DNA of 64,000 nucleotides. Source: Flaccisagitta enflata. Its lineage: Eukaryota. Under the pieces are notes generated by a model that was not told where the DNA came from, made no database searches, and saw nothing but the letters and a program-made list of their open reading frames with translations. Both the position numbers and the translations under genes were made by a program. Shown piece after piece: positions 8,771-63,616 of this stretch (position 1 is its first letter; every line of letters begins with the position of its first letter). The stretch covers positions 4,030,001 to 4,094,000 of the forward strand of contig OZ231126.1 of the NCBI GenBank assembly GCA_965153355.1, given 5' to 3'.

Positions 8771-9306
8771 CTGAAAAAAAGGCAATTTTTTGACCATGAA
8801 AAACATATGAATTTTTTACGTCAACAAGGATTAGGACCCGCCCCCCCCCCATCAGATTTTTACTTTTAGTTGCGGACAAGCGACTTCGTCCGTCAGTCTG
8901 TTGGTCCGTCTGTTGATACGTGCGTTGGTCCGTGATAATCGAGTCGAAAAGTGTGAAAACATAAAAAAACATGCTGATTTGATGACTGTCTAGATGTAAG
9001 TGAGCATGAGGTGGGGGAGAGAGTATGGATGGGGGTTGTATGCTCCCATGCCACTTGTTCTTGAGTCGTACGTAGATGGGCAGAGGCACTTATAATTGCG
9101 GATATTGTATTACCCACAATGGAGAAATAAGACTTCATAGTCAGATGGATGTGCGTCATCACTACACTGTTGTGTGCGTGTGCGAAGAGGACCGTTTAGC
9201 TCGGGAGCTCGTTAGAGAAGAGGCAAGGGTAGCAATAAATCTACCGAGGCAATTGCGTACAGCAGCCAATGAGCCATGTCATTCATAAGACCATAAATGA
9301 ACTTAC

Positions 9307-9385
9307 GTAATTTCCTCTCCATCTCGTCGCATCGGCGAACTTCGTTGACGAATTTCCTTTGAAACGCATTCACGTCCGGATTCAA
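9307..9385 (-). CDS. ATP6V0A1: V-ATPase V0 subunit a, coding exon 2
   Basis: Exact reverse complement of 2970-3048. Confidence 0.95.
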
Positions 9386-9471
9386 CTGCAGATAGGCATA
9401 AGAATCACATGCAAGATCGTGAGACAGAAGTGGGGTTCAAGGTTATCAAATCGGCCATTTCATCATACATA

Positions 9472-28779: not shown

Positions 28780-31270
28780 TGTCAATGACAATGTCCCCAC
28801 TCTCGTCAATGACCATGTCCCCAACCCTTGTCAATGACCATGCCCTCAGCCCTCGTCTCTGACAATGTCCCCAACCCTCGTCTATGGTAATGTCCCCAAC
28901 TCTTGTCAATGACAATGTCCCCAACTCTTGTCAATGACAATGTCCCCAACTCTTGTCAATGACAATGTCCCCAACTCTTGTCAATGACAATGTCCCCAAC
29001 TCTTGTCAATGACAATGTCCCCAACTCTTGTCAATGACAATGTCCCCAACTCTTGTCAATGACAATGTCCCCAACTCTTGTCAATGACAATGTCCCCAAC
29101 TCTTGTCAATGACAATGTCCCCAACTCTTGTCAATGACAATGTCCCCAACTCTTGTCAATGACAATGTCCCCAACTCTTGTCAATGACAATGTCCCCAAC
29201 TCTTGTCAATGACAATGTCCCCAACTCTTGTCAATGACAATGTCCCCAACTCTTGTCAATGACCCTGTCCCCAACCCTCGTCAATGACTCTGTCCCCAAC
29301 CCTCCCATCTCTCATCAATGGCAATTTCCCAAATTTTGTCATTAACAATGTCCAAACTCTCGACAATGTCATTGACAATGTCCCAACTCTTGTCAATGTT
29401 TTTGACAATGTCCCTGCTCTCATCAATGCCCATGTCTCCACTCTCATCAACGCTGATATCCCCACTCTCATCAAAGCTGATATCCCCACTTTTAAAACTA
29501 AAATGTCCTCTCTTCAACTAAAACTTCTTTTCTACTAAAATGTCTTCTTTTCAACTAAAATGTCCCTATCAATGACAAGAAAAGGATTCAAGATCCAGAA
29601 GATTATTTTCCTTGTAGGCTGATGACAATGACAATGTCCCCAACTCTCATCCTGACGATGTCCCCAACTCGCATCGATGATTGTCCCCAACTCTCATCGA
29701 TGACAATATCTGCAACTCTCAACGATGACAATATCTGCAACTCTCATCTATGACAATGTCTCCATCTCTCATTGATGACAATATCCCCAACTCTCATCGA
29801 TGACATTGTCCCTAATTCTCATCAATGTCAATGTCCCCAATTCCCACTGATGACAATGTCCCCAACTCTCATCGATGACAATGTCCCCAACTCTCATCGA
29901 TGACAATGTCCCCAACTCTCATCGATGACAATATCCCCAACTCTCATCGATGACAATGTCCCCAACTTTCATCGATGATAATGCCCCCAACTTTCATCGA
30001 TGATAATGCCCCCAACTTTCATCGATGACCATGTCCCCAACCCTTGTCAATGACCATGTCCCCAACCCTCGTCAATGACCATGTCCCCAACCCTCGCCAA
30101 TGACCATGCCCCCAACCCTTGTCAATGACAATGTCCCCAACCCTTGTCTATATTTATGTCAATAACAATGTCCAAACTCTGGTCAATGTCCATGTCATCC
30201 TCTCTTCTCACTCTCATCGTCAATTTCCATGTCATCCTCTTCTAACTCTCACCAACTATGTCCCAACTCTCATCAACGATGATGCCCCAACTCTTACCTA
30301 TGATGATGTCTTAACACTTATCAATGACTGTGTCCTAGCTCTCTTCCATGACAATTTCCCAACTCTCATTTACGATAATGTGCCAGCTCTCACCAACAAT
30401 GTCCCAACTCAACGATTGTGTCCCACCTTTCATTTATGACAATCTCCCAACTCTCATCAATGACAATGTCCCAACCTGGTTCAAGTGACGAAATCCCCAA
30501 CCTGGAAGTACGTCTTTAAGTTATAAAGTTTGTTTCTGAGCTTAACCCGTGAATTTGTTCTGATTGAGAAAGAGGGAGCAGGGTGGCCCTAAAAGAAATA
30601 ATCGGCAGTTTCGCTGTAAAGATAACAATGTTGAGCAGATGTAGTAGATGATCTACAATGTCCCAACTCTCATTAACAGAAATATCCCCATTTCTTATTA
30701 ACAGAAATGTCTCCAACTTTCATCAATGGCAATATCCCCAACTCTTGTAGATGACAATGTCCCTAACTCTCATTGATTACAATGTCCCTAACTCTAATTG
30801 ATTACAATGTCCCTAACTCTCATCAATTTTAGTGTCCCTATCTCTCATTGATGACAATGTCCTTATCTCTCACCAATGACAATATCCCTAACTCTCATCA
30901 ATGACAATGTCTCTAACTCTCATTGATGACAATGTCTCTAACTCTCATAGATGACAATGTCCCTAACTCTCATCGATGCTGATGTCCCTAACTTTCATCG
31001 ATGCTGATGTCCCTAACTCTCATCGATGCTGATGTCCCTAACTCTTAACGATGCTGATGTCCCTAACTCTCATCAATGCTGATGTTCCTAACTCTCATCG
31101 ATGATGTTCCTAACTCTCATCAATGATGTCCTTAAGTCTCATTGACTCTTCTCATCAATTACGATGTCCCTCTCAATGATGACGATGTCCCTAACTCGCA
31201 TCGATGATAATGTTCCCAAACCTTGTCAACTCTTGGCAATGTCTCAACTCTCATCAATGGCAATGTGCCA
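28780..31270. repeat. 25-bp satellite TCTTGTCAATGACAATGTCCCCAAC and its derivatives
   Basis: Perfect copies at ~28895-29260; diverged variants with CTCATCGATGAC and CCCTAACT further right. Confidence 0.95.
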
Positions 31271-31419
31271 ACTACCATAACCAAGTCTCCATCCATCATG
31301 TTGACGCAGTCTGCAACTGCTTTCTTAATCTGTTCAGATTGTCCACTTCCTCACTGGAGTGTTGTGATTGTTCACTCCTTAAATCAATTTTCAATGTTGT
31401 CAAGTGCCAAGGTCGTCCG

Positions 31420-32640
31420 CTTCCTCAAACAAGTGTCAAGGTCATCTGCTTCCCCAAATAAGTGTCAAGGTTATCTGCTTCCTCAATTCAGTGTCAAGGT
31501 TGTCCGCTTCCTTAAATGAGTGTCTAGGTTGTCCGCTTCCTCAAATGAGGGTCAAGGTTGTCCGCTTCCTCAGATGAGAGTCAAGGTTGTCCGCTTCCTG
31601 AGATGAGAGTCAAGGTTGTCCGCTTCCTGAGATGAGAGTCAAGGTTGTCCGCTTCCTGAGATAAGTGTCAAGGTTGTCCGCTTCCTGAGATGAGTGTCAA
31701 GGTTGTCCACCTCCTCAAATGAGTGTCAAGGTTGTCCGCCTCCTCAAATGAGTGTCAAGGTTGTCCGCCTCCTCAAATGAGTGTCAAGGTTGTCCGCTTC
31801 CTCAAATGAGTGTCAAGGTTGTCGGCTTCCTCAAATGAGTGTCAAGGTTGTCGGCTTCCTCAAATGAGTGTCAAGGTTGTCCGCTTCCTCAAATGAGTGT
31901 CAAGGTTGTCCGCTTCCTCAAATGAGTGTCAAGGTTGTCCGCTTCCTCAAATGAGTGTCAAGGTTGTCCGCTTCCTCAAATGAGTGTCAAGGTTGTCCGC
32001 TTCCTCAAATGAGTGTGAAGGTTGTCCGCTGCCTCAAATGAGTGTGAAGGTTGTCGCCTTCCTCAATTGAGTGTCAAGGCTGTCGCCATCCTCAATTGAG
32101 TGTCAAAGCTGTCGCCTTCCTCAATTGAGTGTCAAAGCTGTCGCCTTCCTCAATTGAGTGTCAAGGCTGTCGCCTTCCTCAATTGAGTGTCAAGGCTGTC
32201 GCCTTCCTCAATTGAGTGTCAAGGCTGTCGCCTTCCTCAATTGAGTGTCAAGGCTGTCGCCTTCCTCAATTGAGTGTCAAGGCTGTCGCCTTCCTCAATT
32301 GAGTGTCAAGGCTGTCGCCTTCCTCAATTGAGTGTCAAGGCTGTCGCCTTCCTCAATTGAGTGTCAAGGCTGTCGCCTTCCTCAATTGAGTGTCAAGGCT
32401 GTCGCCTTCCTCAATTGAGTGTCAAGGCTGTCGCCTTCCTCAATTGAGTGTCAAGGTTGTCGCCTTCCTCAATTGAGTGTCAAGGCTGTCGCCTTCCTCA
32501 ATTGAGTGTCAAGGCTGTCGCTTTCATCAATTGAATGTCCATGCTGTCGCCTTCCTCAATTGAGTGTCCAGGTTGTCGCCTTCCTCGAGTGTCAAGGTTG
32601 TCACCTTTTTCAATTGAGTGTCAAGGTTGTCACCTTTCTC
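31420..32640. repeat. 29-bp satellite GAGTGTCAAGGTTGTCCGCTTCCTCAAAT, switching to GAGTGTCAAGGCTGTCGCCTTCCTCAATT near 32050
   Basis: Direct reading. Confidence 0.95.
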
Positions 32641-33324
32641 AAGATTGTTGCCAATTGAGTGGAGCACAAACTGATGGAAGGATAAAATTGGGTACCCACT
32701 CACACACTCACTTGTCTAGGTTGTCCACTTTAGTCAAGTGTCAAGGTTGTCTGCTATAAAAGAGTTCGGGTTCTCTTCCTCCAGTTGTCCTGCTCCAGTT
32801 GTCCTGCTCCAGCCATGCCCAAGGCTGCCCACTTCAGTCAAGGGTTCAAGGTTGTCTGCTTCAGTCAAGTGTCGAGGTTGTCAGCCTCAAGTCGAGTGTT
32901 GGGGGTTGTCCCCCTCAGTCAAGCATTGAGGTTGTCCGCTCAAATAGCCAAGATCCTATCAGAGGTAATGCTCCATCAAATTGTTGTCATATGTGGACAA
33001 AAGCGATTTATGGTTTGTCCCCACGGACATGCAACAAGCAGATTGTCCCTGGTACACGCAACATGGATTGTCCCTAGTAGAAATGTCATGGATTGTACAA
33101 GTGTCATATATTGTCCCTGGAGTGTCATGGTTGTCCCTGAAACAAGGTTCATGGATTGTCCCTGGTACAAGTGTTATTGTCCCTGGGACAAAAATGATTG
33201 TCTATAATCAAGTGTCATGAATTGTCTCTGGAATAAGTGTCCAGGATTCTCTCTAGATCAACCATCATGGATTTTCCCTGGGACAAATGACAAAGTTCCA
33301 TTATTTTTGAGAATACTCACAACT

Positions 33325-39478: not shown

Positions 39479-39551
39479 CCGGACAAGCCTGTTATTTCGC
39501 CACCCACCAACTTTGAACACACTGTCCACGTCGGATTCGATCCCAGAACCG
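39479..39551 (+). CDS. Pak: PAK coding exon 2 (CRIB/PBD)
   Basis: PDKPVISPPTNFEHTVHVGFDPRTG. Confidence 0.97.
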
Positions 39552-40562
39552 GTAAGCCATTTGCTTTCATACCAGTAATGGCGGCTGTCGCCGTAAGGAA
39601 AAAAGTCGTATGCATTTGTCATTTTTCACCATGCTTTTATCTTCAGTCACTGAAATTTTTTTTTTGTTTGATCAAGTCAAAAGCAATTTGTATGTATTGA
39701 TTGCACTGAAAATCAAAGAAAAATAGGACCAAGCCAAATGAGCCAAATGAGCTAGATGAGCTAAATCATTCTAAATTATTCAACCAGACAACCAACTTTG
39801 CTCACTGATATGCTTTTTTGTATTTGCATGCTTAAATCAAAACATTATTTCATTCATCCTATTTAAAATCAGAGAAAAAGAGCAAGCTAAATGAGCTAAC
39901 TGAGTTAGAATACTTAAAAACGCCCTCACAGATGAGCAGCTCTACTCACTGACATGTTTTTATTTGCTTGCTTAATCAAGTATGAAAATATTTATTCATT
40001 TATCATAATTGAAATCAGAAAGAATAGAATGAGCTAAGTGAGCTAAATGAGCTGAAATGCTCAAAAACGCCCTCACAGATGAGCAGCTGTGCTCATAAAC
40101 ATGTTTTCTTGTATTTGCATGCTCAAACAAACTTAAATACTCTTTTATTCATCTTACACAAAATCGTAAAAAATCAAAAAAAAATTCATTCGAATTTTTC
40201 ATAAATAAATCTTTAAAAAATCAAAGCGCGAAAAATATTTGTCACAAAGCATTTTGCTTGGCGCCAAATGAAAGAGAATTATCAAATTTACTTACCCTAT
40301 CAAATTCATTGGAGGCCCCAATCGGTCGGTGGAGATGCTCAACGTTCCCATAAGAAAATGAAAACCCTGACTTCGACTTTTTTCCTGATAATCAAAAGAG
40401 AATGATGCTGTTCAGTGTTCCTAGTTGGTCTATAGGACGACATGAGAAGTTGATAACTGGAGCAGTGTCAGTGCAGTCAGTAGGAAAAGATGGGAGAAAG
40501 TCTCATAGCGCTTCATACCTTACAATTGAAACCTCGATCGCGGCGTCTTTCTCACTTGACAG

Positions 40563-40717
40563 GCGAGTTCACAGGCATGCCCGAGTCGTGGGCCAAATTA
40601 CTGCAGGCCTCCAACATTTCCGCCGCCGAACAAAAAAAGAATCCCCAAGCTGTCGTCGACGTCCTCCAGTGGTATCATGGGCATCAAGGCAGGGAACAAC
40701 AGTCCAAATTTATGCAG
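40563..40717 (+). CDS. Pak: PAK coding exon 3 (autoinhibitory domain)
   Basis: [51 protein letters not shown]. Confidence 0.97.
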
Positions 40718-41410
40718 GTAAATGCTGCAGTGGTATCCTGGGCATCAAGGCAGGGAACAATAGTCTAAATTTATGCAGGTAAATGCTGCAGTGGTATCAT
40801 GGGCATCAAGGCAGGGAACAATAGTCTAAATTTATGCAGGTAAATGCTGCAGTGGTATCATGGGCATCAAGGAAGGGAACATCAGTCCACATTTATGCAG
40901 GTAAATACGGTAGTGACACCATGAACATCAAGACAGGGAAAAACAGACCGGGATTTTGGAGGGTAACGCTCAACGTGGTATCATGGACTGCAATACCGCA
41001 AGGCAGGGATCAATGGTCCAATTCTATGTAGGTACCTGGTAATCTGGTACATTATGTTGTGCTCTGTCAAGAGTACCGTTCTATGTCATCTGCTGCACTC
41101 CTCGTCACTGTTCATCTTTCTTTCCAACTTTTTTTTTTCTGAACAAGGCCGGATACACGGCCAATACCAGTCGCGGACGGGTGGGCAGGGGCGGAAATAC
41201 GCGTTTTCACATTTTTTGACTCGTGGTCACGGACCAACGGACCGACGGACGGACAAAGCCTCTTATAGAGTCGCTTGTCCGCGACTAAAAAGAGGAAGAC
41301 ATGGCAAACAAAATCAGTGGCAGCCAATATTGCTTAAGCCAATAAATAGTAACAGTAATGATTTCTTTCCTAACCAATTTTTCCTTTCCAATTGACCCCA
41401 ATTGACTCAG

Positions 41411-54481: not shown

Positions 54482-55370
54482 GTAAGTAGGAGAGTGAGCG
54501 AAGTGAGTGAGCGAATTGATACTGATACCATACTCAATTTTATTCACACTTGGTTTTGTAATTATGGAACTTTGGCCATACCTGCTCCCATCTTCGGGCA
54601 AATGGCTGCTCTTTCCTTCTCATCGAGCAGAATAAATGGTCCTCATTGAAACTGAAAGTATTTCAATTAACTTGTATTGTTGACCTTCACCCTTTACACG
54701 AAAATTAAAAGGCGTTCGTTGTTTCACATTCTCACCTTCTTCTGCCCTTTAAGTATGTATTTTTAACAATGTTTGATGATGTTAATGACTGATGAATTGG
54801 CCTCGAGTTTGCTCTATAATCCAGTCTTTGACCTCGACAGAATAACAAAAATGTATCAAACCATTGAAGACTTTTTGGTTTTTTTTTTTTTTAAAGAGAA
54901 ATTTCCTCTCGTGTACCAGATCGCAGATTTTGGTTGAAAGAATGTAATCGGTTCCCTCCCTCCCTCCACTGAACTTTCTGATATATCCTGCTGCCCAGTG
55001 ATTTTTTTATGTGGGAGATCTATCTGATGAGATATACAACTAGTGGCATTCGCCATATGGTGTTCCACGAAAACTTGATTTGGCATGAAAAAGAAAAGCG
55101 ATGATTCATAAAACATTTCTAATAATAATGACCGGACAAATCAGTGTCGTAGATAATGGCCGCCTGTGGGCGGCCTAACTACCACCTGTTAGCGACCTCA
55201 CTGCCGCCTATGGGCGGCCTCACTGCCGCCTATGGGCGGTCCCACTGCCGCGCCTATGGGCGGTCTACTACGCGGGCGTTCTGCCTGGGGCCGTCCCTGC
55301 CGCCTGCGGGCGGTCCTACTGCCGCCTGTGGGCAGTCCCACTGCCGCCTGTGGGCGGTCCCACAATAAGG

Positions 55371-56158
55371 CATACATCAGGGAATTCTGGGCTGTGTGAC
55401 ATACATCAGAAAAAACTGGGTGGTTTGACATACATCAAAGAATTCTGGGCTGTGTGACATATATCGGAGAAAACTGGGTGGTGTGAGATACATTAAAGAA
55501 TTCTGGGCTGTGTGACATAAATTGGTGAAAACTGGGTGGTGTGACATACATCAGAGAATTCTTGGCTGTGTGACATACATTGGAGAAAACTAGGTGGTGT
55601 GACATACATCAGAGAATTCTGGGCTGTGTGACATATATCAAAGAAAACTGGGTAGTGTGACATACATCGAAGGACTCTGGGTTGTGGGACGTACATCGGA
55701 GAAAACTGGGTGGTGTTACATACATCCAAGAATTCTGGGCTGTGTGACATACATCAGAGAAGATTAGGTGGTGTGACAGACATCAGAGAATTCTGGGCTG
55801 TGTGACATATATTGAAGAAAACTGGGTGGTGTGACATACATCAGAGAATTCTGGGCTGTGTGACATACTTGGAGAAAACTAGGTGGTGTGACATACATCA
55901 GAGAATACTGGACTGTGACATCGCAGAAAACTGGGTGGTGTGACATACATTGGAGAATACTGGGCTGTGTGACAAACATCGCAGAAAACTAGGTGGTGTG
56001 ACATACCTCGGAGAATTCTGGGCTGTGTGACATACATTGGAGAAAACTGGGTAGTGTGACAAACATCAGAGAATTCTTTACTGTGTGACATACATTGGAG
56101 AAAACTGGGTGGTGTGACATACATCTGAAAATTCTGGGCTGTGTGACATACATTGGAA
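55371..56158. repeat. 29-bp tandem array, left part (two interspersed variants)
   Basis: Units TGTGACATACATCGGAGAATTCTGGGCTG and TGTGACATACATTGGAGAAAACTGGGTGG. Preceded by a 22-bp GC-rich array (CACTGCCGCCTGTGGGCGGTCC) at ~55158-55363. Confidence 0.95.
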
Positions 56159-59100
56159 TAATAATTTCTTTCTGGAAATTCTTTTCCTTCGCCGTGTCCG
56201 TATATGATATTTGGAGGAATTCCTACAATTCCGAGAGAGGTAGTAGCTCTGATGCCAGAGACTAAAAAAGACTTTTGTTTCTGGCCGATATGCCGGCTCC
56301 GCTGGTCTCTATCTTCATTCTGAATGTCACAGAGTCAAGGAAGCGGATATGAAGGACGGCAATGAAGGGCGAAGACCGTCCCCGCGTTGGACCAATCGCC
56401 CGCTAGGAGCACTTTGACGACGAAAGCACCCTGAGCGAAGACGTCGAAGGCGGAACTGGCACGCGTCGATCTGGAAGGGCATGAAGCCAGACACCAGGAA
56501 CGACGCACTAAAGAGGCTCGAGAGCCTCGCTTCTTCAATGCGAGAACGAGGCGTCCTCGATGCAAAACTGCTTTCGTGACCGACGCTAAAATCTTTACGA
56601 AGACGAAACAGTACCCCACGATAAACGGACAACCTAAAAAGTCCGCTAAAATCGACGCCATCGATGGAAGGCGTCCTACCACGACAGGGCTGCCAAGGAG
56701 ACTCTCTGGTTGCAAAATATTGGAGTGGGAGTAATAGGAGAATTAATAGGAGTATTAACCGGAGAAGTTATAGGAGTAGATAAACAGCCATAAGAGGGAA
56801 GAGGCGGCAAGCCTAGTCCTCGGCTACCACCCCCCCCTCTTCCCTTCCAAAGGAGAGGGAATAAAAGAGTAACTTCCCCCGAAACCCATCTGACAAAATT
56901 CAATATTTAGTAAAAAAAAAATATTTGATGTAAGCATTCTTATTTGTTATTAAGAATGACCAAATCATGAAGGGATTTGATTAAAGATAATAGCAATAAG
57001 AGGGAAGAGGCGGCAAACCTAGCCCTCGGCTACCACCCCCCCCCTCTTTCCTTCCCTAAGGAGAGGGAATAAAAGAGAAACTTCCCTCGAAAACAATCTG
57101 ACAAAATACAATATTTAGTAAAAGAATATTTGATACAAACATTCTTATCTGTTACTAAGAATGTCCCAACCATGAAGGGATTTGATATGTTTAGAAAAAC
57201 AGAGCAGAGGGTGGAATTGTTACGAGATGAAACATCTCTAACATCGCCATGAAAGTCTGGGAAAGAGATCATGAATGAGGATAAACGGGACAAAGTAACT
57301 TGTCTCCTGAAAAACAATGTTTTAAAGAACATAAATAATATAACATTCGATTTCTGACAGGAGAATGTCCAAAGCCCCCATGACCATCTGTAAACAAGCA
57401 GGCTGAATGGGGCAATACGACCCCCGAATAAAAACAATATTATAAAATAGAATATTCAATAAACATTCTGTATGTACGATAAGCAGAATGTAACCAAGCC
57501 TTGAACTTCTGTAAAAGAGGCTATAAATGAGGCGGAATGGGACATAGAAAAGATGTCCCCCGAACGGAATCCCTATTTCTGAGGAAAACATTAAGTTTTT
57601 AACCATTCTTGCATGAAAAGAAGAATGCCCAACCCTGTCATGAAATTTTGGAAATAATGAGAAATGAATAACAGCCAGTAATAAATGTATAGTACGCTAT
57701 ATCCGGCTAAGTCGGCCACATCCAGATGAGGCCGTGGAAGGGAACCTGTAGGAAACAAATATATGGAAATATTTGAAATTATCATTCTATGACTGAAGAG
57801 GCAAGAATGACAATGACTGGGCTCGACATCTCCATTTCCTGAAATGAAACGATGGATAAGATGAGCTGACAGTGCAGGTATGTTATACAACATAAGACCT
57901 CGAATCTGCACTTCCACAGTAATGAACGAGGGCAGATTTGATCCTGAGGGCATAGATAACTATAAATATAATGCCGAAAAGAACCCAATAATTTATATCG
58001 AAATAAAAGGGGATACAAAAAAAAGAAGCAGGGAGGCCACTGATTCTGTATGCCTGATGGCAACCAGCCACGTAACTCCCAAAAAATTATTTCAATAATT
58101 AAGGGATATGATAATAGCAGAGAATCTTCCGCTTAGCAATAAGGGCAGATTATATCTTGAAGGCCTGAGCAAAAATAAAAATGCCAGCCGCGTGCATGTT
58201 GGAAACATGCCACAAAAATCCAGGAACTAACGAGGCCGCGAGGCATGACTGAAAAGCAGAGTTAGAAGGAAGGGGAAATTGGCCCAAAACCCAACAAAAA
58301 AAGGGAGATGGACATGTATAGACATAATAATATTTCTTCTTTGAAATATACCTTCCTTCCCTGGTCATGTTTTCATAGAAAACTAAGGAAGAAAAACTCC
58401 GACCCCATTGAACCCCATGTAAGAGGCGCCTGAAGGACTCAACGTCATACGCTGATCATTTAAGGATAAGCTGCGTTGGAGCAATCGGAACAAACTTGTT
58501 CTTACCAGAAATTTGTTACCATAAGCCAGAGGATTTGAGTCCCAGGGGGAATTGATAGAAGTAACCCGGAGCGATGAGCGGGGACTTCCAAAGGTTGAAC
58601 ATTTGACAAATGTAACCGGACGGGACGGCAGATGTTGATGTCGGGACGAAGGTGACACAACATTCGTACAGAGATGTCCCAGTAATTCCGTAAGATGGGG
58701 GGACACGTCACAGCCCGTTGACATTGAAATGTTCATTGTCCAAATGCTGAGCAGGAAGGGGAGGAAACTCGATACTTTCCACCTTATCGCCAAGGAAAAA
58801 ACTTGACGACGACGATCCAAAGAGTTGCGCGAAGAGGAGGCGGAAGAGGAGGAGGCGGAGGAAGAAGAGACTCGACGAGAATGATTTCTTCGGAACCAAT
58901 ATTTTTTCCCAACTTCTCAACGGAGGTCATAATGGATATCCATTTTGTTTGAGAATTGAAGCCGTTGACCACCGGCGACGTAGTTTTTCCCTGCATCAGC
59001 GAAAACACTGGGGACGACCCCACCACCATGAGAGTGAAAAGAGGCGCAGTAAGATACGGATAATAAGCGTATCTGGCAAAACGACAGTCTGATGTCTCTA

Positions 59101-61496
59101 ACAGAATTGTTAAGCACAGTTCATTGAAACGGGGATGCAATCATCTTGAATTTGCCACCCCTCCTCTCCTGTTGCTGCGAAATTTTCCGCGTAACACCCA
59201 CTTCTTGTAGCGAGGGAAGAAGAGGACGAAGCTGCACAAGAAAATCAAGGTAGAGTAAGACCTAGATCTTCACCATCACCACGCTGTCTAGCCAAAGACT
59301 ACTGCTTAGTAGTCGACACGGCCCACGCCATAATTTGATGAAATTGCAAATTTGTTTAACTTAGACCCGCAGATTATCTAGAAGAAAGCTGACGAATAGA
59401 GGCGATTCTTGAAGCGTTCATACTGTTGCTGCAATTTAGCAGCAGCAGCAGGCCTGGTGCAACATCCTGGTCCGTGGAAAAAAGCGTGGAAGAGATACTC
59501 AAGGGACTCTCTGAGGGCAAGTATGATGCGGGAAATCCAGTCCTTAGTTTACGAAGATGTAAACTAGATGATTTCTTCTAAACCTTATGTAGGCGCCACA
59601 CTTTACTTTTTGCAGTGTGAAATGCTGAAATGCAGAAGTCAATTGCATCATACTTCATGGACCAACACCGCACCACGGATTGTCGGCGGTCCAAGTGCTA
59701 GCTTGCTGGATTGCTTGCCTGCTTGCTTGAGAAAGGCGCCAAATGAATTAGAAGGCGCTTCCCAAAAAGAACTCCGCATTCATTTGATGGGATAAGATGA
59801 GATGGAATTTCGCCCAAAATGTCCTATCTGAGATATGCGTCAGACTCATCAAACTTCTGTTTGTCGTGTGACAGACTCCCATCAACGTCCTTATTATCTG
59901 GAATTAGACAGATAACGCCTTGCCATGAGAATTCTTCACGAGAATTTCCATGACTGCACATGACCTGCAGCTTACGGATACAGGGCGACCGATAGCTAAA
60001 GGATACCGGGCGGGGCCGACAGCTCAAGGATGCCGGCCAGTCAGTATATCAAGTATACCGATGATCAGTACATCAAGAGTACTGATAGCATGTGCCTCAC
60101 GTGTCCAAAACCATCCTGAGTGGTCCCGAGCCAAAGGCATGGTTTTTACTCGCACCTCTCCTCGCATGGTAGAACCCGCTGGTGGGTGCGAGGGCGGAGG
60201 AGGAGGGGGCGGTTCATTGATGCAGCCCCCCTCCTGTGAGGGCATGGGAGGAGTGCGACCGAACTACTTACGACGTCGGACTGCGAGCGGGACGATGGAC
60301 ACGCAAGTGGGCTATCCCGTAGAACAACAGCAGGTTGGATGAAAACAGCAGGGGCAGCAGATGCAGTCGCCGCGGCTCGCAAAGGGAAGACGGGGATCGA
60401 CGTCACATGAAAAGCAAGCGAAAGTAGGGAAAAATGTGATTAACAATAAGCGATATGATGTAGAGACAGACCAAAATTTCAGTCCAAATGGAGGATGAAA
60501 GGGGCGGCCGGCGGGTCTCATATACGGACACGGCGAAGGAAAAGAATTTCCAGAAAGAAATTATTATTCCGTTCGCCTTTTGTCCGTATATGATATTTGG
60601 AAGAAATGCCACCGAACTGAAAGTGTCTGGTGTATCATAAAGCATTAAATCAATTTCACACTTACCCTTGCGCTGATGATCCCGAATTCCAACATAGCGA
60701 ATAGACAAGGACGATGTGCTGCTGTCGCCGTGCTGATGTTGCTGTTGTTCTACTGCAGACGGGGATGCTCTTTTTGGCACCCTCTGCTGCCGCAACTAGG
60801 GATGTATCTTATCAAGCCCTGATGCATCTGGAGATCTGAATGCAGCAATACCCCCACCGCCAATATGGATGGAAGCTGATGCTGCAACTCGTCACGACGG
60901 CTGAGATCACCAGAGGGAGAGCGACGCGGCGAAAAACGTAGCGAAAGCTCTCGGCTTGGAAAACAACCATGATAAGGGGCAGTGCATGCCGCCCATTTAT
61001 GCGCCCGGAGTGAAGCGGTAGAAGAATCAACGCAGATGACTCGACGCGACGATTAACTCCGACCAAAAGGGAAGCCAGTACTGAAAAGAGGCCAGTAAGC
61101 CTTTTCCAGGCCAGTGATATATGATCGGTGAGTTGCCGGTCAAATGCCGGCATCTTAGCTGGGCGCATAAAATCGGTCAAGGGATAAATATCTTGACTGG
61201 TCACGGTTGACGTTGATAGTAGATCAAGCCATGTTGGGTCCAAAAAAGGGCGAGAACGCGAAATTTGGACGTTGGTAGTAGTTGATTAAGCATAGAAATT
61301 TTAAGAAATTTCACAAGATTTCTGATGAGCTGTCTCTCGGACGTGAGTAGAAATCGGAATGAAGATAGAGACCAGCGGAGCCGGCATATCGGCCAGAAAC
61401 AAAAGTCTTTTTTAGTCTCTGGCATCAGAGCTACTACCTCTCTCGGAATTGTAGGAATTCCTCCAAATATCATATACGGACAAAAGGCGAACGGAA
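56155..61496 (-). mobile_element. DIRS1-like tyrosine-recombinase retrotransposon with decayed ORFs
   Basis: 126-bp identical inverted repeats (56195-56320 and 61357-61482) with unequal outer extensions. The internal complementary region 60518-60601 matches both ends joined through GGAA. YR-like C-terminus SRSTRASSAFDVFAQGAFVVKVLLAGDWSNAGTVF lies in ORF 56335..56715 (-). Faint RT-like remnants (KFKM, YAYY, LPFLLS) at ~58740-59155 (-). Confidence 0.85.
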
Positions 61497-62649
61497 AATT
61501 CTGGGCTTTGTGTCATACATTGGAGAACATAGGGTGGTGTGACATACATCGGAGAATTCTAGGCTGTGTGACATACATTGGAGAAAACTGGGTGATGTGA
61601 CAAAAACATCAGAGAATTCTGTACTATGCGACATACATTGGAGAAAACTGGGTCGTGTGACATACATCGGAAAATTCTGGGCTGTGTGACATACATTGGA
61701 GAAAACTGGCTGGTGTGACATACATTGGAAAATTCTAGGCTGTGTGACATACATTGGAGAAAATAGGGTGGTGTGACATACATCGGAGAATTCTAGGCTG
61801 TGTGACATACATTGGAGAAAACTGGCTGACGTGACATACATTGGAGAATTCTGAGTTGTGTGACATACATTGGAGAAAACTGGGTGGTGTGACATATATC
61901 GGAGAAAACTGGGTGGTGTGACATACATCGGAGAATTCTGGGTTGTGTGACATACATTGGAAAAAACTGCGTTGTGTGACATACATCGGAGAATTCTGGG
62001 TGGTGTGACATACATTGGAGAAAACTGGGTGGTGTGACATACATCGGAAAATTCTGGGCTGTGTGACATACATTGGAGAAAACTGGCTGGTGTGACATAC
62101 ATTGGAAAATTCTGGGCTGTGTGACATACATTGGAGAAAATAGGGTGGTGTGACATACATCGGAGAATTCTAGGCTGTGTGACATACATTGGAGAAAACT
62201 GGCTGGTGTGACATACATCGGAGAATTCTGAGTTGTGTGACATACATTGGAGAAAACTGGGTGGTGTGACATATATCGGAGAAAACTGGGTGGTGTGACA
62301 TACATCGGAGAATTCTGGGTTGTGTGACATACATTGGAGAAAACTGCGTTGAGTGACATACATCGGAGAATTCTGGGTGGTGTGACATACATCGGAGAAA
62401 ACTGGGTAGTGTGACATACATCGGAGAATTCTGGGTTGTGTGACATACATTGGAGAATTCTGGGCTGTGTGACATACATCGGAGAATTCTGGGTTGTGTG
62501 ACATACATTGGAGAAAACTGGGTGGTGTGACATACATCGGAAAAAACTGGATGGTGTGACATCGGAAAAAACTGGATGGTGTGACATACATTGGAGAATT
62601 CTGGGTTGTGTGACATACACTGGAGAAAACTGGGTCGCGTGACATACAT
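61493..62649. repeat. 29-bp tandem array, right part
   Basis: Same units and orientation as 55371-56158; resumes in register after the DIRS-like element. Confidence 0.95.
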
Positions 62650-63151
62650 TTTTACATAGGAAAAATCTGGGACGGACGGACGTACACACGGAAAATTTCT
62701 TAATATTTAGTGTTCCACTATCGTGGAACACAATGAGTGAATCAATCCGTGGAAAAAGAAAAAGAAATCTTCATGAGTGATTGCACAGTAAACATAATTC
62801 TATCGCCTTTAGAAAAAGGTTCATTCGATATGTTTGTAACTCTGTCTTTATCTTTATCTTAGTCTTTATCGCGAGGTTTTATCATCACGGAGTTAAATTT
62901 CACGACTTATACTAATTTGTGTCAATTTAACTTTTAAGTTATGGATTGTTTACAAGGACGTTGTTAGTGTCCGTCTGGATCGAGTCATCGTCAACGTAGC
63001 TTTTCGACGGAAACGGCGAGTCTGTTAATACTATAGCCTATAACGCCCTTAAATCAAGGCCCAAGTCATTTCCCATACCGTTCCTATATGATCTGGCGTA
63101 GTAAACATCTTAAGCTTTCCAGTCAGTCCACTTTCCTGACACTCCACCTGA

Positions 63152-63616
<465 letters not shown>

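Follow-up and report, generated by a model that had tools for sequence, protein, structure and literature searches.

A probable non-autonomous DIRS1-like retrotransposon without detected genes in satellite-rich DNA of Flaccisagitta enflata

The window analysed here is a 64-kb stretch of DNA from Flaccisagitta enflata (contig OZ231126.1, positions 4,030,001 to 4,094,000), which contains an element of 5,342 bp that begins and ends with GGAA and is set into a short-unit satellite. The element carries inverted terminal repeats (ITRs) as well as an internal complementary region (ICR), and is probably a non-autonomous, non-coding member of the DIRS1-like (ITR + ICR) retrotransposons. Its parts, delimited by repeat analysis and base-by-base comparison of the arms with the window as the search space, are given below, those without a stated strand having none assigned.

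56155..61496: whole element, 5,342 bp, with GGAA at both ends (56155-56158, 61493-61496)
56155..56183: 29-nt terminal extension, absent from the other end (end-to-end alignment of the termini)
56184..56194: left divergent ITR part, 11 nt (gapped alignment against the outer 14 nt at the right terminus)
56195..56323, plus strand: left conserved ITR, an inverted repeat perfect for 126 nt (56195-56320)
61354..61482, minus strand: right conserved ITR, inverted copy of 56195-56323 (repeat search and base check)
61483..61496: right divergent ITR part, the outer 14 nt, ending in GGAA with no extension beyond (terminus alignment)
60518..60570: ICR half for the left, extension-bearing end 56155-56207 (reverse complement, 53/53)
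60567..60612: ICR half for the right end 61451-61496 (reverse complement, 42/46)
60581..60593, plus strand: 13-nt box TGTCCGTATATGA, with further copies at 56195 (plus), 60518 (minus) and 61470 (minus) (base check)
56783..57186: tandem duplication of ~206 bp, 87% identical (repeat search)

Cis architecture and insertion site

The two ITR arms align over 129 nt at 99% identity and are perfect over 126 nt (56195-56320 / 61357-61482), with the first mismatch at 56321, so that the identical 126-bp ITRs claimed in the original prediction, which had been made from the letters of the DNA, are confirmed. The 29-nt extension is complementary to the ICR and has no counterpart at the other terminus in the terminus alignment; when folded, it contains a 6-bp hairpin (AATTTC/GAAATT, 56163-56180) 8 nt from the end. 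The ICR half for the left end matches at every position, while that for the right end is perfect over 35/35 nt to 60601 and then carries four mismatches between 60602 and 60610. The two halves overlap in the TTCC at 60567-60570, which is complementary to the GGAA present at either end of the element. Aligned to both ends joined over one GGAA, the complement of the ICR shows no gaps and no mismatches over ~90 nt, as had been predicted for the segment 60518-60601. In the whole window the 13-nt box has exactly four occurrences, all at ITR/ICR boundaries: each conserved ITR has one at its outer edge, and each ICR half contains another. A box shared by ITRs and ICR halves is described for DIRS1-like elements in Piednoël et al. 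2011 (PMC3266345). The distance from the ICR is 741 nt to the ITR that lacks the extension and 4,194 nt to the extension-bearing one. The predicted ~206-bp duplication is also real, with arms at 56783-56981 and 56989-57186, among looser repeats spaced 205-324 bp.

The element interrupts a satellite with a 29/58-bp unit, which was found on both sides by repeat search.

55371..56154: left flank, 29/58-bp satellite, ending ...CATT before GGAA
61497..62650: right flank, the same satellite, resuming with AAATTCTGGG...

The satellite arrays themselves extend over 55371-56157 and 61509-62650. The flanks read ...CATT[GGAA ... GGAA]AATTCTGGG..., with no target duplication, and the satellite form CATTGGAAAATTCT, uninterrupted, is found at two places in the array on the right, suggesting that the insertion took place by recombination at GGAA and produced no true target duplication. 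In contigs from the sequencing runs considered below, an empty allele of the insertion site is not distinguishable from other satellite units; ‘skip’ joints between both flanks in these contigs were considered as proof of an empty site and rejected, being satellite-to-satellite matches.

Tandem and inverted repeats abound in the region, which lends something to the reading of the whole structure as chance or structural inverted repeats in satellite-rich DNA that was never mobile. Against this, an exact complement of 88 nt to both ends, in the right order and with 4 nt shared, is impossible by chance, and beyond the element the satellite continues in register. A non-mobile origin is therefore exceedingly improbable and was rejected.

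Coding capacity and orientation

The interior of the element was searched with Pfam in three ways, using six read-through frames of the element (E<=1), the stop-to-stop open reading frames (ORFs) of at least 70 aa in the window, including those of the element (E<=0.01), and 87 ORFs of at least 35 aa on both strands of the element (E<=10). No Pfam family was found in the six read-through frames. The window ORFs that cover the element gave no match to reverse transcriptase (RT), RNase H, integrase/recombinase or gag, and neither RT nor integrase was found among the ORFs anywhere else in the window. Among the 87 element ORFs there was no RT, RNase H, recombinase/integrase, gag or methyltransferase, and only scattered unrelated matches with E between 0.015 and 3. 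Rfam (E<=1) returned three sub-threshold matches of miRNA models to hairpins, which were taken as noise, and ARAGORN found no tRNA.

The interior is indeed full of stop codons, as predicted, with 85/109/96 in the three plus-strand frames and 49/65/46 in the three minus-strand frames. Stops on the minus strand number 151, compared with 195.6 +/- 9.1 in dinucleotide shuffles, the plus strand being at expectation. This deficit was considered as a trace of old coding sequence and judged weak: its ratio of 0.77 compares with 0.75-1.22 in control 5-kb blocks of the same window, the deficit falls in degenerate tandem repeats, and the longest ORF, which has 177 aa and lies on the minus strand, is no longer than shuffles allow, 44 of 300 reaching its length. 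The sole relative of this ORF in the protein database derives from a 662-nt ENA contig and is identical save for a stretch in another frame, which shows that the frame is not conserved. The interior is thus non-coding, and there is no support for its descent from genes. The original prediction was right in calling the element non-autonomous, given that Pfam detects no RT, RNase H, tyrosine recombinase (YR) or gag. Its ‘coding interior’ with ‘frameshifts’ is not confirmed, since there is no protein homology on either strand and so no frame to shift, and the same applies to its ‘RT/YR remnants’, ‘YR C-terminus’ and decayed genes, for which the read-through frames, the window ORFs and the 87 element ORFs yielded no Pfam match. 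Without a detected protein domain, the element can be regarded only as a non-autonomous derivative, and not as a full DIRS1-like member.

The ITR/ICR design is strand-symmetric, and a sense strand can be defined only by ORFs or transcripts, neither of which was seen. Homology to RT, RNase H and integrase had been proposed as a means of fixing it; the Pfam search gave no such match. Of the predicted ‘5'-located ICR’, what stands is its position nearest to the ITR that lacks the extension, at a distance of 741 nt; the 5' label follows only if the extension-bearing end is taken as the 3' end.

The comparison set for this question is Table 3 of Piednoël et al. 2011 (PMC3266345), containing 28 elements, 21 of them metazoan with determined termini. 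In this table all 21 metazoan elements have a right extension (rE) only, of 26-50 nt, left extensions (lE) occur only in fungi and amoebozoa (0/21 metazoan elements), and the tabulated metazoan DIRS1-like ICRs are at the 3' end, which is the rE-bearing end. The ICR is described as a 3'-end feature near the right repeat, and in most of the Xenopus families the ICR and ITR ‘overlap slightly’. Two readings of the present element, which we hold at about even weight, differ in the strand taken as sense.

In the reading of the original prediction, sense is on the minus strand and the 29-nt extension would be a canonical 3' rE, the ICR having moved to a site ~740 nt inside the 5' ITR, for instance by an inversion of the interior through recombination between the perfect ITRs, together with extra sequence between ICR and ITR. 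We regard this as possible, short of an even chance. It agrees with the rE-only rule of the 21/21 tabulated metazoan elements (PMC3266345), and gives a left ICR half of 46 nt and a right one of 53 nt, with pyrimidine-rich termini (TTCC) and a purine junction (GGAA) like the NTT/AAN pattern of termini and junction tabulated for 23/28 elements. The extension hairpin, 8 nt from the end, would then be comparable to the hairpin that Poulter and Goodwin proposed as a primer at the 3' end of the DIRS-1 RNA, and the stop deficit would fall on the sense strand (151 versus 195.6 +/- 9.1). That deficit, however, lies at the edge of the control range and in degenerate repeats, the minus strand has no ORF or homology detected by Pfam, and its longest ORF is no longer than shuffles allow and is frame-shifted in its relative. 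Moreover, inverting the sequence enclosed by the perfect ITRs would account for the side on which the ICR lies but not for the 741-nt gap: a simple flip would set the ICR against the other ITR, in keeping with the slight overlap of the Xenopus families. The plus strand is also the A-rich one over the whole 5 kb (A 32%, T 22%). An A-rich bias is usual for the sense strands of retroelements.

In the second reading, plausible to much the same degree and likewise below even, sense is on the plus strand, with the ICR 3'-proximal as usual and an architecture that is lE-only, as in AcasDIRS1 and AmDIRS1, for the whole lineage including its partner. The ICR is far closer to the right ITR than to the left (741 versus 4,194 nt), as expected from ICRs described at the 3' end near the right repeat. 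Elements with only an lE exist in Table 3 of PMC3266345, with ICR halves of 52-36 and 110-39, the left half being the longer as it is here (53-46). The A-richness of the plus strand throughout the 5 kb also fits, as does a slight excess of G-to-A over C-to-T among the plus-strand changes private to the window copy relative to two runs of the same organism (13 versus 8 and 16 versus 10), which is not significant. On the other side, an lE is found in 0/21 of the tabulated metazoan elements, the purine-rich termini (GGA/GAA) that this orientation implies are rare in that table, and a distance of 741 nt from ICR to ITR would be unusual even so. Under either strand, the geometry differs from that of the described metazoan elements: the layout is either of the lE type, recorded so far only in fungi and amoebozoa, or of the rE type with the ICR moved to the 5' side.

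Copies in public reads and the junction core

Contigs from three public runs were compared with the element, two of them from DNA of the same organism (X1, ~22 million contigs, and X2, ~21 million contigs, their mean length being close to 53 nt) and one from a marine metagenome (X3). The contigs had been assembled from 31-letter words, and the word depths given here are relative, without a single-copy baseline. Two further features are needed for this comparison.

60537..60575: junction core, consisting of the extension, GGAA and 5 nt (run-contig word depth)
58830..58870: GAG/GGA-rich low-complexity stretch, which has a word depth of 37,300 and draws unrelated reads

Contigs of 500-1,400 nt from X1 and X2 cover the entire interior with ~0.4-1.2% differences from the window. 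The word depth of the interior is 357-486 in X1 and 148-337 in X2, while the rarest satellite-variant contigs in the same comparison have depths of 93-100 and 36-86, respectively, giving a rough lower bound of ~4 copies. The number of contigs and their short mean length make a several-hundred-fold coverage of the genome look unlikely, which also argues for more than one copy, and the breaks in the interior contigs every 0.5-1.4 kb are as expected where copies differ. One X2 contig (56291-57590) spans the 206-bp duplication, indicating that the duplication is a trait of the family and not private to the window copy. Near-identical copies sharing the same lesion, as anticipated in the original prediction, are therefore probably several, with interior contigs ~99% identical. 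In X3, scattered pieces of the interior are present (21/30 bins, 0-3 differences, depth ~3). Part of the element is found in 14 runs of 9 studies, of which 12 runs are marine or seawater metagenomes and 2 are from the same organism, with no RNA run among those listed; the 662-nt ENA contig mentioned above matches the interior as well. These observations suggest a young multi-copy family of near-identical elements. To judge from the runs that contain part of it, its host is a marine animal. In the RNA sample, comprising ~6% of the reads of one raw polyA run, 82 reads matched the element, all of them partially and on low-complexity sequence, most in the bin 58830-59011 and a few in 59558-59739.

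An alternative is that the element is a relic, dead and present in a single copy, of a DIRS element that was formerly autonomous and has ceased to be mobilised. Its 5,342 bp are the length of an autonomous element (the 28 tabulated elements in PMC3266345 have a mean length of 5,160 bp), the scans of the window and of sequence collections found no partner, the RNA sample contained no transcript, and the copy number is uncalibrated. Yet an interior old enough to have lost all similarity to RT and YR should not retain ITRs identical at 126/126 and an ICR half identical at 53/53 positions, except if the ends had been regenerated recently by a cycle of replication, and the interior has at least ~4 times the depth of the rarest contigs and is broken every 0.5-1.4 kb. 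A single dead relic thus appears very unlikely.

The word depths also bear on the relatives of this family. At 60550, in the junction core, the depth is 14,775 in X1, 6,378 in X2 and 173 in X3, compared with 486, about 178-268 and about 3 beside the core, which is thus ~30 times deeper than its surroundings. Loose contig ends occur at 60537 and 60575, identical in all three runs, and the same foreign flanks of 20 nt adjoin the core on both sides in X1, X2 and X3. The ~30-fold depth and the foreign flanks suggest that a much larger sister population of related elements shares the core but not the adjoining sequence. A 126-nt ITR contig in X1, with 0 differences, has a depth of 1186, more than twice that of the interior, and some ITRs may accordingly belong to elements with another interior. 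The excess depths of the ITR and of the junction core are the only hints of an autonomous partner. The cis structure, the lack of a protein domain found by Pfam, the insertion site and the near-identical sequence with its shared internal layout in other samples are observed, while mobilisation in trans, the copy number and a partner that recognises the shared core are inferred. Reads of the circle junction were not identified, a junction being indistinguishable from the ICR with contigs of 31-letter words or short reads.

In the abundant contigs of the sister family, A/T-rich versions stand where the present element has a CpG-rich box (…ACGGACACGGCGA…). The pattern of these A/T-rich boxes resembles C-to-T / G-to-A decay or editing of older copies.

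Proposed cycle, related systems and genomic setting

By analogy with DIRS-1, an inward promoter in the ITR would give rise to a sub-genomic RNA, to be copied into single-stranded cDNA by the reverse transcriptase of another element. The cDNA ends would then anneal to both halves of the ICR, which would act as splint and template, restoring the extension and the divergent ITR parts and yielding a circle junction ...GAAC-GGAA-TAAT.... A tyrosine recombinase supplied in trans would recombine the GGAA of this junction with a target GGAA, here in a satellite unit of the form CATTGGAAAATTCT, and the outcome would be an element flanked by GGAA without a true target duplication. A cycle of this kind, passed through recently, is the best explanation for the near-perfect agreement of ICR, ITRs and termini around an interior without coding constraint, and the element probably spreads with enzymes borrowed from a relative.

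The cis features shared with DIRS1-like elements are the ITRs, an ICR of two halves, the junction overlap, a single extension, a boundary box of at least 10 nt and the lack of a target-site duplication, while gag, RT/RNase H and YR ORFs, and the placement of the ICR beside the extension-bearing ITR, are not found. Its dimensions (5,342 bp, extension 29, divergent ITR 11-14, conserved ITR 129, ICR 46/53) are all within the ranges of Table 3 (PMC3266345). The original prediction of a DIRS element with wrecked genes is accordingly retained for the DIRS1-type cis architecture, the non-autonomous state and, probably, the presence of several copies, and is unsupported for the RT/YR remnants and the decay of genes. 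In the descriptions of GaDIRS1, XtDIRS2 and DpuDIRS3 given in PMC3266345, metazoan DIRS1-like elements likewise have conserved and divergent ITR parts, one extension of ~30 nt, adjacent overlapping ICR halves, a shared box of at least 10 nt, a length of ~5 kb, identical short ends and no target duplication. By contrast, the present element is devoid of gag, RT/RNase H/methyltransferase and YR; its junction overlap is 4 nt (GGAA/TTCC), compared with 3 nt (NTT/AAN) in theirs; and its ICR is near the terminus without the extension, 741 nt off, while theirs is at the rE-bearing 3' end. AcasDIRS1 of Acanthamoeba and AmDIRS1 of Allomyces share with it the extension at the ICR-distal end and a longer left ICR half, but they are autonomous and belong to an amoebozoan and a fungus, with no metazoan example listed in Table 3 of PMC3266345. 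In DIRS-1 of Dictyostelium discoideum, according to the Cappello model as presented in Malicki et al. 2020 (PMC7192593), an ICR complementary to both termini is likewise the template for restoring the ends, although DIRS-1 is autonomous and its ICR is near the right repeat. That article reports the DIRS-1 ICR to be essential for retrotransposition and cDNA to be made by the RT in trans.

These comparisons leave room for a bolder reading, which we put forward only tentatively: a metazoan DIRS1-like lineage in which a full-sized element without genes is amplified wholly in trans, with its ICR displaced opposite the extension, 741 nt inside, and served by a far more abundant partner that shares only the ~39-nt extension/junction core. 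If so, it would be natural evidence that every protein step of DIRS retrotransposition (reverse transcription, end restoration and recombination) can act in trans, that the junction core is the smallest site needed for recognition, and that the ICR is free in both its position and its orientation with respect to the termini. DIRS elements are the least understood order of retrotransposons, with Dictyostelium as the only experimental system, and a young multi-copy family having only ITRs, extension and ICR would provide natural evidence for a full cycle in trans and define the minimal cis requirements. The deep and invariant junction core is probably the sequence recognised by the recombinase and in the priming step, and the placement of the ICR relative to the extension, if true of the family and its partner, would mean that this geometry is not fixed in animals. 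Gene-less elements are invisible to protein-based DIRS finders (ReDoSt, RepeatPeps-type searches), and DIRS-derived DNA may for this reason be under-counted in large marine invertebrate genomes.

Several points weigh against the main reading, that of a non-autonomous DIRS1-like element mobilised in trans. A truncated DIRS-1 in Dictyostelium completed no retrotransposition cycle in trans in the experiments reported in PMC7192593. An autonomous partner was not found, the ORF and Pfam search giving none in the 64-kb window. A scan of metagenome contigs with the first 20 nt of the element gave two candidates (L001, L002), both chance matches of 20-21 nt and nothing further, and a scan of viral contigs with a 24-nt word from the ICR junction gave 0 matches. 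Relatives in the protein database are few, with one for the longest ORF and none for the ITR-spanning ORF, which had been searched for partners with other interiors. The copy number is uncalibrated, and the ~1% differences could in principle be allelic variation at a single locus. An ITR of 129 nt is too long to be bridged by contigs from 31-letter words, and the ends, flanks and interior orientation of the other copies are thus unseen. Finally, there was no genuine transcript of the element in ~6% of one polyA RNA run, a sample that says little on expression.

Non-autonomous members of the DIRS order are known already in the groups with split direct repeats, namely TOC1 and SIRE/VIPER; TOC1, too, has split direct repeats. 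TOC1 of Chlamydomonas, termed a non-autonomous DIRS retrotransposon in PMC9940879, and SIRE/VIPER of Trypanosoma cruzi (PMC6681497) are gene-less or truncated elements of the DIRS order and are regarded as dependent on an autonomous partner. SIRE/VIPER differs from the present element in having split direct repeats and not ITRs and an ICR, and SIRE is a short terminal fragment, whereas the present element is full-sized with an unrelated interior. The literature found on non-autonomous DIRS elements was confined to TOC1 and SIRE, a gene-less animal family with ITRs and ICR being undescribed in it; Repbase, which was outside this search, may hold entries. A broader parallel is found in the large retrotransposon derivatives (LARDs) and terminal-repeat retrotransposons in miniature (TRIMs) of the long terminal repeat (LTR) retrotransposons, which keep nothing beyond their cis-acting ends and undergo mobilisation in trans; LARDs, like this element, have a long non-coding interior. 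Unlike the element, LARDs and TRIMs have direct LTRs, partners with a DDE integrase and target-site duplications.

Apart from low-complexity matches, the Pfam matches among the window ORFs of at least 70 aa are to host exons (V_ATPase_I, PBD, Pkinase).

39479-39697 and 40484-40765, plus strand: PBD exons (Pfam)
63152-63616, plus strand: kinase exon (Pfam; human PAK1-3 structures, E = 1e-19)
9215-9436, minus strand: isolated exon for the N-terminal part of V-ATPase subunit a (Pfam V_ATPase_I, E = 2e-9)

The PBD and kinase exons are those of a group-I PAK gene and are spread over >24 kb of satellite-rich introns. With these exons on either side, the element lies inside a long, satellite-filled intron of this gene. 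A 141-bp tandem duplication (2.3 copies, 91%; 63186-63519) extends across the 3' end of an intron into the initial codons of the PAK kinase exon, creating a pseudo-exon start just upstream of the real start of that exon.

The 29-bp satellite around the element is a 58-bp dimer with two alternating unit types and is very highly represented in reads of the organism: the word depth summed over this 29/58-bp satellite exceeds 1 million in X1, and a marine metagenome gives about 98,000. Its start is abutted by a GC-rich 22/44-bp tandem repeat (GCCGCCTGTGGGCGG…, partly palindromic) at 55159-55363. Further satellites are found elsewhere in the window. Several arrays of a near-palindromic 27-bp unit (AAAATCATCGAAGTTCGATGATTTTTG), up to 97% identical, lie between 33321 and 36400, interleaved with higher-order units of 101-175 bp. 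Arrays of a 25-bp satellite are present at 28780-30148 and 30706-31126, and a 29-bp array that is 93% identical at 31403-32642. Related to the satellites of 28780-32642 are repeats of 22-24 bp (‘TTGTCAATG…GTCCCAAC’) between 18.7 and 28.6 kb.

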